From assembly GCA_022616075.1 (NCBI GenBank), contig JAKEFK010000048.1, positions 2,371-66,370 on the forward strand: a stretch of 64,000 nt of DNA, given 5' to 3'. The notes below the pieces were generated by a model, which was given only the letters and a program-made list of their open reading frames with translations, was not told where the DNA came from and searched no databases. How positions within the stretch are numbered: the stretch's first letter is position 1; each line of letters starts with the position of its first letter. This document shows positions 5,911-64,000 of this stretch, piece by piece. This DNA comes from a bacterium (GTDB taxonomy: Bacteria; Acidobacteriota; HRBIN11; JAKEFK01). A program made the translations under genes and the position numbers.

Positions 5911-5962
5911 GTAGCGCGGGCGTCCCGCCTGCGAGGAGCTGCAGCCGCGACGGCCGCGCTAC
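5911..5962. repeat. family-1 palindromic repeat, copy 2
   Basis: gtagcgcgggcgtcccgcctgcg...cgacggccgcgctac, lying between convergent genes. Confidence 0.8.
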
Positions 5963-5967
5963 TTTGA

Positions 5968-7245: not shown

Positions 7246-7304
7246 GTAGCGCGGCCGTCACGGCTGCGAGAGCTAAGAAGACGCAGGCGGGACGCCCGCG
7301 CTAC
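7246..7304. repeat. family-1 palindromic repeat, copy 3
   Basis: gtagcgcggccgtcacggctgcg...cgcaggcgggacgcccgcgctac. Confidence 0.8.
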
Positions 7305-7316
7305 TTTGTTCTATCG

Positions 7317-15089: not shown

Positions 15090-17286
15090 AGAAAAATTGA
15101 TAGAAGCCTATGGAAAAGGAGCAGGCTCGAGTAACAGAAATGAATGCCCGTCCGCTGAGATACTGTTTGAGCTAGCCAGCAATAACCTGGCAAAAGCGGA
15201 AAAGCTGAAGTGGATTCAGCATATATCCAGGTGCCGTGAATGTTCCTCTGAAACTCGGGTTCTCTTAGCCTCAGCACCTCCTGTGAAGCGCGTAAGGATC
15301 GTTCGCTCTTCCGTTTTGACGATCGCCGCCAGCATCATACTCTTACTTGCAGGCGGCCTGTACCTATACAAATTCCAAAGGGAACAACCTTATCAACGCG
15401 TCCGTATCGCGTTCCTCGACCCCAGAAACAACACCAACAATCAGCAGCTGAACGCGATTGCTGCAATGTTAAGCACTTCACTCGAACAGTCCTCTCAGGT
15501 ACAGGTGATCAGCCGTGCCATGATGGTCGATGCAGCAAAACGCTCTGGACAGTCCAATGTAAGGATGCTGGACGAAGCCGCGGTTCAGACAATCAAAGAC
15601 AAATTTTCTCCAACCGCCATCGCATTCACGACGATTGAGAAAGATCCGGAAGGAATAGCCATTCATGTAAACTTGAAAGATGTAAAAACAGGCAAACAAC
15701 TTTACTCTGGCAATCAGAAAGCGCGGGATCTGGCTTCCGTTCCCTTTCATCTCGATGAAATTTCCCGCTCCTTGCGCTCTCATCTTGAGGAAGATCAACC
15801 CGCCCTGAGAAATTCAAAACGGATCAGCGAATTGACCACTGAAAACATGGCTTCCTATTACCACTATTTCAAAGGTGAAGACTTGCTCAACAGGCTCTCT
15901 TTTCGCGAAGCGGAAGCCGAGTTTGAACAAGCCGTTCAAATGGATCCGACTTTCGCGATCGCTCATTACAAACTGGCTTTTGCGCGCTGGACATCGGGTG
16001 AACCGGCGCGCGACGCAATCGCGAAAGCCATGAAATTCAAGCGCAAAGCTTTGCCAAAGGAACAGAAGCTCATCCGCGCTTATTCCGAATACATCAATGG
16101 AAAACCGCATCAAGCGTTGCGCATTTACCGGAGCGTTCTTCAGACTTATCCGGAAGAGAAAGAGACTCTTTACATGGCAGGTGACGTCTCCTTTCATGGA
16201 GGGGATTACGCGACCGCGGAATCCTATTTAAGAAAAGTTCTTGAGCTGGATCCGGCCTATGGCCTGGCATACGATCATTTAATTTTGATCTACGAAGGTA
16301 CGAATCGCTACGAACCGCTGGCGCATCTCGCTCAGAAGTTCGTACAAAATGTCGGCAGTGAACGCTCCTATAAACTGTATGCCGACGCTCTAAACTTGCG
16401 TGGAGAATTTGAAGCGTCGCGCCATACCTATGAAACTGCGAAAAAGATTTTCACATCCAGCACGATGCCTTTGATCGGTATCGCTGAAGATGTTCTTGTG
16501 TTCCAAAATCGATTTCCGGAAGCGGAATCAACCGTCCGCGCTTTGCTCTCGAAGTCTGAGGACACGCAACGGCAAGCTTACAGAAGCCTCACAAGAATCC
16601 TTGTATATCAGGGGAAATATCGCGAAGCTTTGGAAGCATCGAACCATGTGGTTGAACTCGATCGGAAGTCAAAGGATTCTCAGAACCTGGCAAGAGCATA
16701 CGCTCAAAGAGCTTTCTGGTTGCTCACTTTGCGAGGGGATCAGAAAGGCTTTGAAATTGAAATGAATAACGCGCTAAAAGCGGATACTCATCATGATGAC
16801 TTTCTTTACATTTATCTTTTCCAGAACTACCTGCTGGCTGGCCGCATTCCCGAAGCAGAGCAAATCGCGAGGGAGAATATTCTTGATTACGGATTCTATC
16901 CGGACATGCTGAAGGCATTTGACGCGCGTAAAAAACGGGACCATCAGCAGGCAATTCGTGTGCTGAACGATTTGGAAACGCGGGGAGAACCCTGGAGCCG
17001 CATCCTACGCACACGGGAACTTGCCCTTGCCTATAATGAAAAAGGCGACTACCCCGCCGCATATGACACCTTTGAGAAGCTAAAAACAACTTTTTCCAAT
17101 TATCTTGGCCATCGTGCGGTCTTTTATCCGGAAGCGCTATACTATCAAGGCGTGCTGCTCGAAAAAATGGGAGACAAACAAAAAGCGCACATCACTTATA
17201 CAAACATGACCGAACTCTGGAAAAATGCGGATTCGGATATTCCTTTCTTGAAGCAAGTGAAATCACGTTTGAGCCGATCAAAGTAG
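15076..17286 (+). CDS. putative anti-sigma factor: N-terminal Cys-rich zinc-finger-like segment, one TM, large periplasmic TPR domain
   Basis: Overlaps the sigma gene by 14 nt. CPSAEIL..H..CRECSS motif, then TM (VLTIAASIILLLAGGLYLY), then about 600 aa of TPR-like helical repeats. Confidence 0.6.
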   Translation: MKVNEEKLIEAYGKGAGSSNRNECPSAEILFELASNNLAKAEKLKWIQHISRCRECSSETRVLLASAPPVKRVRIVRSSVLTIAASIILLLAGGLYLYKFQREQPYQRVRIAFLDPRNNTNNQQLNAIAAMLSTSLEQSSQVQVISRAMMVDAAKRSGQSNVRMLDEAAVQTIKDKFSPTAIAFTTIEKDPEGIAIHVNLKDVKTGKQLYSGNQKARDLASVPFHLDEISRSLRSHLEEDQPALRNSKRISELTTENMASYYHYFKGEDLLNRLSFREAEAEFEQAVQMDPTFAIAHYKLAFARWTSGEPARDAIAKAMKFKRKALPKEQKLIRAYSEYINGKPHQALRIYRSVLQTYPEEKETLYMAGDVSFHGGDYATAESYLRKVLELDPAYGLAYDHLILIYEGTNRYEPLAHLAQKFVQNVGSERSYKLYADALNLRGEFEASRHTYETAKKIFTSSTMPLIGIAEDVLVFQNRFPEAESTVRALLSKSEDTQRQAYRSLTRILVYQGKYREALEASNHVVELDRKSKDSQNLARAYAQRAFWLLTLRGDQKGFEIEMNNALKADTHHDDFLYIYLFQNYLLAGRIPEAEQIARENILDYGFYPDMLKAFDARKKRDHQQAIRVLNDLETRGEPWSRILRTRELALAYNEKGDYPAAYDTFEKLKTTFSNYLGHRAVFYPEALYYQGVLLEKMGDKQKAHITYTNMTELWKNADSDIPFLKQVKSRLSRSK

Positions 17287-17332
17287 CGCGGACGTCTGCG
17301 CGCGCTGTTCGCAGGCGGGACGCCTGCGCTAC
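17283..17332. repeat. family-1 palindromic repeat, copy 4
   Basis: gtagcgcggacgtctgcgcgcgctgttcgcaggcgggacgcctgcgctac, directly after the anti-sigma stop. Confidence 0.8.
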
Positions 17333-17343
17333 TTGGAAGGAGA

Positions 17344-35389: not shown

Positions 35390-35462
35390 GGCCGCAGGCA
35401 TCTTACCCGCTGCGTACTGGAAGTCCGCGGCGCCTAATGCGGGCTGGAAGCCCGCGCTCCAT
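35390..35462. repeat. family-3-related palindromic repeat (contains the GGACTTCCAGT core arm and GGCTGGAAGCCCGCGCTCCATAG)
   Basis: Homologous to the sequence flanking the MITE at 63735-63935. Here the site is uninterrupted. Confidence 0.7.
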
Positions 35463-35464
35463 AG

Positions 35465-41310: not shown

Positions 41311-42248
41311 TGAACTTTGTACCGCCGGCTTCCAGCCGGCAGTCTGTAGCGCCGGCGGCTCGCCGGCGAAACATATCTGCACTCAGAGCATCGTTAACTG
41401 TATTCATCCTTCTAATCCCCCTCCTGTCCTTCTCCTCCTCACCCACCGTCGTCTTCATGAGCGACTTCGGCACCATCGATGACTCCGTCGCTATTTGCAA
41501 AGGTGTAATGCTTGGAATCGAACCGGATCTTCGCATCATCGATATCACCCATGAAGTTCAGCCCTTTTCCATCATGGATGCAGCGCGTTTCCTTGCAGGT
41601 ACAGCACCTCACTTTCCTTCGGGCACGGTATTTGTTGTGGTAGTAGATCCGGGAGTAGGAAGCGTACGAAAACCGATCGTGGTCAAATCGCGAAAAAACC
41701 AGTTTTTCGTGCTCCCTGACAATGGCTTGATCACGCTCGTGGAAGAGGCCGATGGTATCGAGAGTGTGCGGGAAATCACAAACATAAAATGGATGAACGG
41801 GAATGCGCTCTCCTCAACCTTTCATGGCCGGGATATTTTTTCGCCTGTGGCTGCGCATCTGGCAAGCGGCAAAGATTGGATTGAGGTGGGACCCGTAGTC
41901 CCGACTCCGATCCGTCTGGATGTCCACCGATCCAGGATCGATGAAAAAGGACTCACGGGTGAAATTATCGGAACTGACGGTCCTTACGGAAACCTCCTGA
42001 CAAACATCCCGGCAGAAATATTCCAGAAGATGAACATCGCGCTAGGCGATCTCATTCATGCGCGGATCGGAGAACGTGATTTTGAAATTCCGTTCGTCAA
42101 AACATTCAGTGATGTGGCTGTAGGTCAACCTCTTTTCTACATCGATTCGCGCGGGCGTCTCGGAATCGCTATCAATCAAGGCAACTTCGCGGACGCATAT
42201 AAAATACGTCCTCCCGCCCCAATCTTTGTTTATCGCAGAAAGCCGTAA
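41310..42248 (+). CDS. SAM hydroxide adenosyltransferase family protein (DUF62, chlorinase/fluorinase-like) with predicted N-terminal signal sequence
   Basis: FMSDFGTIDDSVAICKGVMLG..D.THE and the C-terminal beta-barrel domain are typical of DUF62. An N-terminal RRR..hydrophobic stretch is present. ATG overlaps the lepB stop (TGATG). Confidence 0.7.
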   Translation: MNFVPPASSRQSVAPAARRRNISALRASLTVFILLIPLLSFSSSPTVVFMSDFGTIDDSVAICKGVMLGIEPDLRIIDITHEVQPFSIMDAARFLAGTAPHFPSGTVFVVVVDPGVGSVRKPIVVKSRKNQFFVLPDNGLITLVEEADGIESVREITNIKWMNGNALSSTFHGRDIFSPVAAHLASGKDWIEVGPVVPTPIRLDVHRSRIDEKGLTGEIIGTDGPYGNLLTNIPAEIFQKMNIALGDLIHARIGERDFEIPFVKTFSDVAVGQPLFYIDSRGRLGIAINQGNFADAYKIRPPAPIFVYRRKP

Positions 42249-42289: not shown

Positions 42290-42343
42290 GTAGCGCGGAC
42301 GTCTCGTCTGCGCGCAGTTCCGCAGGCGGGACGCCCGCGCTAC
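42290..42343. repeat. family-1 palindromic repeat, copy 5
   Basis: gtagcgcggacgtctcgtctgcgcgcagttccgcaggcgggacgcccgcgctac. Confidence 0.8.
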
Positions 42344-42361
42344 TTTGCGAGTTGTTTAGTT

Positions 42362-44180: not shown

Positions 44181-44230
44181 GTAGCGCGGGCGTCCCGCCT
44201 GCGAACGCTACGCAGACGAGACGTCCGCGT
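44181..44230. repeat. family-1 palindromic repeat, copy 6 (inverted, 3' end degenerate)
   Basis: gtagcgcgggcgtcccgcctgcgaacgctacgcagacgagacgtccgcg. Confidence 0.7.
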
Positions 44231-44266
44231 TCCTTCGCGTCCTTCGCGATCTTCTGTTCAAAAAAA

Positions 44267-49952: not shown

Positions 49953-49993
49953 TTTTTTCCAGCCAGAGGCGCAAACCGTCCTAAAGTTCAGAT

Positions 49994-50067
49994 GGGGCGC
50001 GGACTTCAGTCCGCAAAAACTTGTGAGCGCAAAAACCACTTTGCGGGCAAGGATGCCCGCGCTCCCA
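49994..50067. repeat. family-3 palindromic repeat core (GGRGCGCGGACTTCAGTCCGCAAAAAC...TTTGCGGGCAAGGATGCCCGCGCTCCCAC), without TIRs
   Basis: About 85% identical to the core inside the MITE at 63794-63867. Confidence 0.75.
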
Positions 50068-50170
50068 CACGAACCGCAGCATTAGTATTCCTGCACGGTC
50101 GTGTAAGCAATCCGGTCATCGCTGTACGGATTCCTTACAAAAACAACTCGCCTCCTCGTCGATTCAAAAA

Positions 50171-62520: not shown

Positions 62521-63711
62521 TTATCTGTCGCGCAATGGGGAATAAGGCTTTTTGAGAAACTTCTTCGCCATGTCATGGGAATCAAAAACATCTTTTCTTT
62601 TTAGAACAGTTTGGTACTCGAGTCGTGCCTCATCCCGCTTGGCAAGCGCATCCATGGATTTTCCCGCATTTAAGTGCGCAAGCGTTGCGAGAGCAGGAGG
62701 CGCTTTCTTTGAGTTGTATGCTGCCACAAACTGCTCATACGAATCTTGCCAGCGGTCCGCATCCGAAAGCATGGTTCCATACTGATAGTGAATTAGATCC
62801 GGAATGTACGAACTCGAATCGGGATCCTGAAGCAGCAGATCAAATTCATGCGCGCTTTCGGAAAACTTTCGCAACTGACCTAAAGTCATTGCCCTTTCCA
62901 AACGAAACAGTGAATTCTTTGAATAACGTTGAACCAGTTGATCCAAAGTTTTCAGAGCGTCTGCAATCCGTTTCTCCCGGTTATACAACATCACCAAAAG
63001 CACTTTGCCCTCATCCTTCGCGTAGTTTCCCTCTTTCGCAACTTTTTCCAGCATGGCAATCCCATCCTTCTTGGAACCGCGAACACCACCTATAAAAGCC
63101 AGCACCTTGACCGCCAGAGGCAAACTGCCCACTACGTAGTTGTACATTCCAACAGATAACTGGGCATCGATGCATGTCGGGTCCTTTTCCATAATTTCCC
63201 TGTGAAGTCCCACTCCCTTGGAACCGTTCCTGAGCGCCGGCAAAAAGCTCCTTTTCACTGTTGCCTCATAGCCGGCAACAATGTTCTTCGCAACACCAAG
63301 AAAATAAAGAGAAGGAATATCTTTCCTTCGCGTTTCTAACCGGTTTTCGCAAAGTGAAATACCTTTATCGACTTCCTGCCGAAACGCCTTGTCAATCTTT
63401 GGATCGACTGCATCCTCAGTTTTGCTAAAAAAGGAATTGCCACGGTTGTAGATATTCGTCTGCAACCGCCGCAACTGCGCAAGATGGCCCAGCCAGATTG
63501 TGTTCGCCATGTAAACATGTCCTGCGGGATGCTGCGGGTCCAGATCAATCATTTTCTGAAAACCAGACCGCGCGCCGTCGTAGTCCATATTGAACAATGC
63601 ATCGACACCCTGGTTGCGAAACGTTTCCAGTTCCGGAGAAAGAAGAACGGTGGAAGCGAAAGAAGGACTTACGAGGAGAAACAAGAATAGAATCGAGAAA
63701 CGATAAATCAT
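62521..63711 (-). CDS. secreted TPR-like helical-repeat protein
   Basis: Probable start at MIYRFSILFLFLLVSPSFAST (signal peptide). The track ORF extends to 63840 into the repeat region. Helical-repeat composition. Confidence 0.55.
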   Translation of the reverse strand: MIYRFSILFLFLLVSPSFASTVLLSPELETFRNQGVDALFNMDYDGARSGFQKMIDLDPQHPAGHVYMANTIWLGHLAQLRRLQTNIYNRGNSFFSKTEDAVDPKIDKAFRQEVDKGISLCENRLETRRKDIPSLYFLGVAKNIVAGYEATVKRSFLPALRNGSKGVGLHREIMEKDPTCIDAQLSVGMYNYVVGSLPLAVKVLAFIGGVRGSKKDGIAMLEKVAKEGNYAKDEGKVLLVMLYNREKRIADALKTLDQLVQRYSKNSLFRLERAMTLGQLRKFSESAHEFDLLLQDPDSSSYIPDLIHYQYGTMLSDADRWQDSYEQFVAAYNSKKAPPALATLAHLNAGKSMDALAKRDEARLEYQTVLKRKDVFDSHDMAKKFLKKPYSPLRDR

Positions 63712-63772
63712 CACAGTAATTATATTAAGAAGCAGGCTAAAAGCCTGCGGCCCGTAATGGAGGCTGGAAGCC

Positions 63773-63906
63773 GAGGTTGTTGAAAAATCAATTGGAGCGC
63801 GGACTTCCAGTCCGCAAAAACGTGTTTGCTCGACAAGCATTTTGCGGGCAAGATGCCCGCGCTCCCACTAGAGGACCGCCCGCGATCTGGATTTTTCAAC
63901 AACCTC
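63773..63906. mobile_element. 134-bp non-autonomous MITE: perfect 17-bp TIRs GAGGTTGTTGAAAAATC, 4-bp TSD AGCC, family-3 core inside
   Basis: TIRs at 63773-63789 and 63890-63906 are exact reverse complements. AGCC lies at 63769-63772 and 63907-63910. The flanking sequences rejoin to ggctggaagcc|tgcgctccatag, which matches the uninterrupted paralog ggctggaagcccgcgctccatag at 35439-35462. Confidence 0.8.
63794..63867. repeat. family-3 palindromic core inside the MITE
   Basis: ggagcgcggacttccagtccgcaaaaac...ttttgcgggcaagatgcccgcgctcccac, paralogous to 49994-50067. Confidence 0.75.
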
Positions 63907-64000
63907 AGCCTGCGCTCCATAGCAGCGCAGACGCCTTCGGTCCATTATAATCATTCAAGATGGACTGGCGGGAGCGATTTGGAGTCCCAGAAGGACTACA

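Follow-up and report, generated by a model that had tools for sequence, protein, structure and literature searches.

The 134-bp non-coding segment at positions 63773-63906 of the window (the whole stretch of DNA analyzed here, 64,000 nt) is very probably a MITE of a large CAGGTTGTTGAAAAAC-ended family, a minority of whose members begin with GAGG, and this family would derive from ISAzs10-like insertion sequences (ISs) of the IS5 family. Its TIRs are perfect (17/17 positions), and a copy of AGCC lies on either side (Table 1). Within the window, GAGGTTGTTGAAAAATC is found at these two sites only, with no third site at three or fewer mismatches. By our own estimate, 64 kb would contain a perfect inverted repeat of 17 nt spanning no more than 150 nt with a probability of about 6e-4 (64000 x 150 / 4^17), and identity of the AGCC flanks by chance contributes a further factor of 1/256. 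Folding of the element as a single strand gives a single long hairpin (-40.3 kcal/mol, z = -6.9). Its six-frame translation has no match among predicted proteins, and an Rfam scan of the window likewise returned no match. The identical sequence, element included, is present in a second assembly (GCA_022615055.1, contig JAKEHM010000293.1, hereafter L001), and there is one copy of the element within 74 kb of genome, that is, the window plus the 10 kb past its end on L001. An earlier note on this DNA had read the locus as a MITE-type insertion of 134 bp with perfect 17-bp TIRs and an AGCC TSD, and this description holds, with exact TIRs and orthologs that lack the element.

Table 1. Coordinates of the element, its insertion site, the neighboring genes and related repeats in the 64-kb window.
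Feature	Position	Strand	Basis
TPR protein gene, 396 aa, oriented away from the element	62521..63711	-	exact protein in public assemblies including L001
HEAT-repeat / cNMP-binding protein gene start, 1043 aa, runs off the window	63961..64000	+	gene calls on L001, L251 and L253
Left TIR, GAGGTTGTTGAAAAATC	63773..63789	+	exact match
Right TIR, GATTTTTCAACAACCTC on the + strand	63890..63906	-	exact reverse complement of left TIR
Left TSD copy, AGCC	63769..63772	+	read directly
Right TSD copy, AGCC	63907..63910	+	read directly
Core: AATT, then REP doublet	63790..63865	+	inverted repeat and similarity to TIR-less paralog
Right subterminal segment, CACTAGAGGACCGCCCGCGATCTG	63866..63889	+	resembles right ends of the largest metagenome MITE subfamily
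Left part of interrupted host REP hairpin, GGAGGC TGGAA GCC	63759..63772	+	colinear with orthologous uninterrupted hairpins
Right part of interrupted host REP hairpin, TGCGCTCC	63911..63918	+	colinear with orthologous uninterrupted hairpins and 35442-35464
Second hairpin of host REP pair, GCAGGCTAAAAGCCTGC, intact	63732..63748	.	stem-loop search; position conserved in orthologs
Paralogous uninterrupted copy of host REP hairpin	35442..35464	+	22/23 identical to rejoined flanks
TIR-less paralog of core (REP doublet)	49993..50068	+	86% identity over 77 nt
Second REP-like doublet family, sites	2893-2946, 5911-5966, 7246-7306, 17276-17334, 41346-41367, 42290-42345, 44181-44237		

The most direct evidence for insertion comes from orthologous loci. 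The element sits between two divergently transcribed genes, and it is absent from four related contigs with the same divergent arrangement (L250, L251, L252 and L253), whose TPR protein homologs are 83-87% identical. Those homologs of the TPR protein that carry an organism name indicate Acidobacteriota. On L251 and L253, the divergent upstream gene is the same HEAT/cNMP-binding gene as at the element locus, while on L250 and L252 the contig ends within the divergent gene. The spacers between the two genes measure 123, 97, 152 and 112 bp on L250, L251, L252 and L253, respectively, and 248 bp at the element locus. Removal of the element and one AGCC leaves 110 bp, which align colinearly with all four orthologous spacers. 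The interrupted REP unit, GGAGCGCAGGCTTCCAGCCTCCATTACGG, is then 29 nt long, the same length as in L253, L252 and L250, and it would be 33 nt with both copies of AGCC kept. The 29-nt unit in three orthologs thus indicates that AGCC was duplicated on insertion, rather than being part of the ancestral repeat in all copies. The insertion of the 134-bp element is genuine and specific to this lineage, and it is a more parsimonious explanation than four precise excisions.

The interrupted sequence is itself a REP-like hairpin, with AGCC (GGCT on the other strand) spanning its stem/loop junction. Joined, the two host hairpin parts give GGAGGCTGGAAGCCTGCGCTCC, which is colinear with the ortholog hairpins and with the paralogous copy at 35.4 kb, in agreement with the earlier proposal that the element landed in a copy of a repeat akin to its core. 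With the flanks rejoined as GGCTGGAAGCC followed by TGCGCTCCATAG, 22 of 23 positions are the same as in that paralogous copy; the match claimed previously is therefore real, with its coordinates corrected from 35439-35462 to 35442-35464. The 35.4-kb copy had also been taken as the empty site, a role that we reassign to L250-L253, as it is a paralogous repeat only.

The same comparison bears on the possibility that no transposon is involved, and that the region is a locally grown, BIME-like mosaic of palindromes in which the 17-bp arms form a further stem and AGCC is internal to the repeat. Nested palindromes do make up the region, AGCC overlaps the hairpin stem, and the flanks joined with AGCC kept still give a possible hairpin, GGCTGG-AAG-CCAGCC. 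However, none of the 138 bp is present in the orthologous spacers, where the REP unit is shorter by 4 nt than the version with both copies of AGCC kept. These arms also form the ends of at least 120 unrelated elements that have 4-bp duplications, as well as of complete IS5-family ISs. We thus consider a mosaic of this kind extremely improbable.

Upstream of each neighboring gene, a TATAAT box lies 7-9 nt from the ATG (63712-63724 and 63941-63960), and these boxes are conserved in all four close orthologous spacers. Their proximity to the ATG suggests that the transcripts may be leaderless or near-leaderless. The insertion lies approximately 35-50 nt outside both boxes, which remain intact and are now 138 bp further apart, and the effect on both genes is probably little. 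A promoter scan found no full sigma-70 consensus in the spacer, and thus, any regulatory effect, which might extend to expression of the neighboring genes, is speculative.

To place the ends of the element in a wider context, we searched metagenome contigs with the pattern GGTTGTTGAAAAA-N(89-119)-TTTTTCAACAACC. This two-TIR pattern matched at least 120 contigs, and among the matches listed, we analyzed the 119 elements with enough flanking sequence (loci L122-L241). These are 116-145 bp long, and their consensus consists of YTAR, CAGGTTGTTGAAAAAC...GTTTTTCAACAACCTG and again YTAR, with CA...TG just outside the TIR core in 75 of the 119 listed. Identical 4-bp flanks are observed in 48 of the 98 listed elements that have xA...Tx ends. 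The perfect TSDs of these 48 are TTAG (17), CTAA (13), CTAG (9), TTAA (5) and other TA-containing tetramers (4), such that YTAR accounts for 44/48 and the remaining four all contain TA. The 30 flanking pairs that read TTAG/TTAG or CTAA/CTAA are non-palindromic, and they are therefore direct duplications rather than extensions of the TIRs.

The window element shares with this superfamily the TIR core, the size range, the TSD geometry and the long-hairpin fold, and its GAGG start recurs in 7 listed elements. It differs in its target, as AGCC is not a YTAR site and contains no TA, making it an outlier among the perfect TSDs of the listed elements. The word textbook, applied to this insertion in the earlier note, was hence too strong for a copy that duplicated AGCC in a family that targets YTAR. 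It differs also in its core, which has a free counterpart in the form of a REP doublet and which is found in none of the 119 listed elements. The interiors of the listed elements fall into at least 27 unrelated core clusters, the largest having 28, 23, 14, 8 and 8 members. The cluster with 28 listed members shows strong conservation between samples; an extra tandem copy of the 17-nt TIR sits at one end in most of the members listed (...TTTTTGAACAACCTGAGTTTTTCAACAACCTG), and elements of this cluster produce spurious ORFs of the type ...LLKNS...AVFQQP.

Outside of metagenomes, a scan of a genome collection with the 17-mer returned at least 120 rows that are mostly single chance matches and give no copy number, although it includes a related element flanked by TTAG in a Deltaproteobacteria MAG (L116). 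In viral contigs, the two-TIR pattern had zero matches, and the single-end TIR pattern matched 8 loci, none with a long-range partner. BLASTN against plasmids with the 134-bp element and the main subfamily consensus gave nothing relevant, and a full-text literature search for four 13-nt strings from the TIR core found no paper. Two further occurrences of the 17-mer are of separate interest. In an Elusimicrobia MAG, a CRISPR array (L032:5805-5837, repeat GTCGCGCCCCGCGTGGGCGCGTGGATTGAAAC) has a spacer, GTGTAATTCGAGGTTGTTGAAAAATCCGTCGGG, that includes the exact 17-nt TIR. The match may be due to chance, or the spacer may be directed against an element that bears an IS or MITE. In Pseudoalteromonas piscicida (L070:7509-7817), the 17-mer occurs three times in direct orientation within a different short repeat, GCGCTTTACGCGGC-GAGGTTGTTGAAAAATC-GCGGGGTGAACCCGC, which seems to be an unrelated family of repeats with the motif in common.

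Described bacterial MITEs, such as Chunjie of Geobacter uraniireducens, Correia and ERIC, are small, non-coding, intergenic and size-variable, with TIRs and direct repeats and a transposase acting in trans (PMC10969869). The window element resembles all three in being small, non-coding and intergenic with TIRs and direct repeats. Chunjie was considered as its identity and rejected on size (178-235 bp (PMC10969869) versus 134 bp). In a census of MITEs, 98.2% of clusters were confined to one genus (PMC11602168). Unlike those clusters, the superfamily ends span an Acidobacteriota-like genome, a Deltaproteobacteria MAG and many metagenomes, and the family may be worth its own description.

Searches by tblastn with transposase queries pointed to two contigs, L200 (see below) and L178. 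The likely parentage of the superfamily emerged from the latter, which carries a superfamily MITE and, in addition, CTAT followed by CAGGCTGTTGAAATTC and a partial transposase. This transposase scores 220.7 bits against the NCBIfam IS5 model (NF033581, cut-off of 140), and its annotated relatives, at 56-57% identity, are labeled "IS5 family transposase" or "ISAzs10 family". Complete IS5-family ISs with matching ends are known from organisms other than the host. Thiolapillus brandeum pTBH10 contains a complete IS of 1304 bp that runs from CAGGGTGTTGAAAAACC to TTTTCAACGGCCTG (the right end also read as ATATTTTCAACGGCCTG) between two copies of TTAG, and ISAzs10 of Azospirillum sp. B510 begins with CAGGCCGCGGAAAAAGG after TTAG. 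Viral contigs add four ISs: one of about 1.32 kb beginning with CAGGTTGCTGAAAAACG (L265) and one of 1539 bp beginning with CAGGGTGTTGAAAAAGC (L264), both flanked by CTAG; one of 1367 bp beginning with CAGGTTGCTGAAATAG and flanked by CTAA (L267); and one of about 1.36 kb that runs from GAGGCTGCTGAAAAAGC to CAGCAGCCTC between copies of CTAG (L269).

When compared with these ends, GAGGTTGTTGAAAAATC agrees at 14/17 positions with each of GAGGCTGCTGAAAAAGC, CAGGGTGTTGAAAAACC and CAGGGTGTTGAAAAAGC and at 13/17 with CAGGTTGCTGAAAAACG. The ends of the ISAzs10-like clade (NF033581; the pTBH10 IS and ISAzs10) can be written as CAGGnTGyTGAAAAA, and one relative, the IS on L269, has termini of the G...C type, as does the window element. 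In both the clade and the window element, the 4-bp duplication directly abuts the ends. The combination of matching ends and the same 4-bp duplications in IS5-family ISs indicates that the MITE superfamily derives from this IS5 clade. The ISs themselves are autonomous, 1.3-1.5 kb long and found at YTAR, with a transposase of approximately 360 aa, whereas the window element is 134 bp, non-coding and flanked by AGCC.

From these similarities, the most likely mobilizer is a DDE transposase of the IS5 family that acts in trans and is encoded outside the window. Pfam scans revealed no transposase among the 50 main ORFs of the window, and tblastn with IS5, IS701 and IS1182-like transposases found no match in the window or the 10 kb beyond, in agreement with the earlier observation that the window contains no transposase gene. 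A further tblastn search with E. coli IS5 InsH also gave no match. We sought an autonomous copy through long-range pairs of TIRs at the MITE-bearing loci and found none with matching duplications; the pairs that do occur merely bracket ordinary genes such as recA, and they were rejected as autonomous elements.

The YTAR target is not exclusive to the IS5 clade, which raises the question of whether another family with a 4-bp TSD mobilizes the MITEs, either IS701 or a DUF772 + DDE clade between IS1182 and IS5. At L200:246-1830, a single CTAG is occupied by a stack of three elements: a superfamily MITE, an IS of the IS701 family and an IS of the DUF772 type. As each of the three is CTAG-bounded, this 4-bp target is used by several families. 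We also observe, on L257, L255, L256 and L258, a clade of approximately 450-aa transposases with DUF772 and DDE_Tnp_1, which fall below the NCBIfam cut-offs for both IS1182 (180 versus 270) and IS5 (76 versus 140) and which, judged by these domains and scores, appear to be an intermediate IS5/IS1182 group. The left end on L257, L256 and L258 is CAGsCCGTTGA after a TA-containing tetramer, while no element ends were recognized on L255. Within this clade, both ends are visible only on L257, where the YTAR flanks are unequal (CTAA and CTAG). The longer form of the DUF772-clade end is CAGsCCGTTGACGAAGT, and the flanked example reads CTAA, CAGGCCGTTGACGAAGTCGG... and CTAG.

Thus, the L200 stack and the CAG-initial ends and YTAR flanks of the DUF772 clade are the points in favor of such a mobilizer. 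The ends of the elements nevertheless argue for the IS5 clade. In the one IS701 element whose ends were examined, that on L200, they are TATTACTACGTTAAGT, which is unlike and unrelated to the MITE ends; the end of the DUF772-type IS at the same locus is CAGCCCGTGTCTAAAGTCG. The MITE consensus agrees with DUF772-clade ends at about 11/16 positions versus 14-15 of 16-17 for IS5-clade ends, the latter including a variant with G...C termini. A mobilizer from IS701 or the DUF772 clade is accordingly quite improbable.

The interior of the element has a different affiliation from its ends. The core contains an inverted repeat, I1, of 26 nt and 81% complementarity, with arms at 63794-63819 (GGAGCGCGGACTTCCAGTCCGCAAAA) and 63840-63865 (TTTTGCGGGCAAGATGCCCGCGCTCC) separated by a 20-nt spacer. 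REPIN is the concept used for REP doublets with RAYT as their putative mobilizer. The core has the REP/REPIN form, in that it consists of two inverted, GC-rich units about 20 nt apart that make a hairpin, has a free copy in the genome and is accompanied by related hairpins across the window. The free copy at 49993-50068 bears out the earlier claim that the core also occurs without TIRs, and the core doublet belongs to the same hairpin family as the repeat hit by the insertion. The mobility of REP doublets is attributed to RAYT tyrosine transposases (PMC2817692), and Pfam scans found no Y1_Tnp/RAYT family among the 50 main ORFs of the window. In contrast to REPs, which lack such TIRs and a TSD, the doublet in the window element lies between ends of the IS5 type. 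Intergenic spacers across the window also contain another abundant family of hairpin doublets that are GC-rich and REP-like (GTAGCGCGGGCGTCCCGCCTGC / GCAGGCGGGACGCCCGCGCTAC).

The transition between core and ends is asymmetric. At the right, the subterminal sequence CGATCTGG-ATTTTTCAACAACCT (...CGCGATCTGG-ATTTTTCAACAACCT) resembles the right ends, ...GCGACGATCTGGCTATTTTTCAACAACCTG, of the largest MITE subfamily, and this 24-nt segment appears to be what is left of the ancestral body of the MITE. Judged from these resemblances, the element is a chimera in which only the TIRs and the approximately 24 nt next to the right TIR are family-like, and a host REP doublet makes up the remainder of the core.

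How the doublet came to lie between the TIRs can be explained in two ways. In the first, an ordinary member of the family inserted here, and most of its core was later exchanged in place for a host REP doublet, through REP/REPIN mobility or through gene conversion from another such doublet, so that the composite never moved as a unit. We regard this as possible but less likely than not. It would account for the right side keeping 24 nt of family-like sequence where the left side keeps only the 17-nt TIR, and it is consistent with the independent TIR-less doublet and with REP-like hairpins being common in the window. It is also favored by the lack of a second composite of TIRs and REP, either among the 119 listed metagenome elements or in the six-frame protein search; on the same grounds, the statement in the earlier note that a palindromic repeat had been mobilized as a MITE goes further than the data. 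On the other hand, the perfect TIRs (17/17) and perfect TSD suggest a recent insertion, which would leave little time for replacement, no RAYT/Y1 transposase is encoded in the window, and 74 kb of genome is far too small for the absence of further copies to count.

The second explanation, proposed in the earlier note, is that the composite formed elsewhere and moved here as a unit; later entry of the doublet would be equally compatible with the data. In a wider form of this explanation, IS5-type TIRs would be a portable shell that captures host REP doublets, the window element would be one such captured doublet that jumped as a whole into another REP, and REP hairpin DNA might attract the transposase to non-YTAR sites. 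We consider this wider form unlikely. If it were true, REP palindromes would gain a second, DDE-dependent route of spread besides the RAYT route. We also looked for free host REP units in other subfamilies, a candidate pattern that was unsupported. For three core motifs of other subfamilies, 48 of 66 copies lie inside an element, which gives no support to REP capture as a habit of the family in general.

Irrespective of the origin of the core, the derivation of the element from the IS5 clade suggests a simple order of events. An IS5-family DDE transposase from elsewhere in the genome would have bound both 17-bp TIRs. The element then inserted at the stem/loop junction of the REP-like hairpin, in a 110-bp spacer between divergent genes, presumably through a 4-bp staggered cut, and AGCC was duplicated, as would follow from repair. 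Our guess is that the transposase was drawn to hairpin-prone DNA, giving the AGCC target. Other ISs are known to target REP sequences, namely IS1397 and ISKpn1 of the IS3 family and IS110-family elements in Pseudomonas. Like the window element, these insert within a REP hairpin; they belong to other families with other ends and chemistry, whereas the family of the window element usually targets YTAR, not REP.

Overall, the element is a genuine MITE of IS5 ancestry and of a known kind, with an unusual target and a host-repeat core. Its CAGGTTGTTGAAAAAC ends mark a very widespread MITE superfamily of environmental bacteria with many unrelated cores, for which we found no description and which matching ends and the 4-bp YTAR duplication now connect to a specific IS5 clade. 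The superfamily also explains many spurious "...LLKN...FQQP..." ORFs in metagenome annotations. Finally, as this copy demonstrates, an element of this type can insert into a GC-rich REP hairpin, a site very unlike its usual target, and can have a host REP doublet as cargo; this bears on the exchange of sequence between REP-type repeats and transposons.
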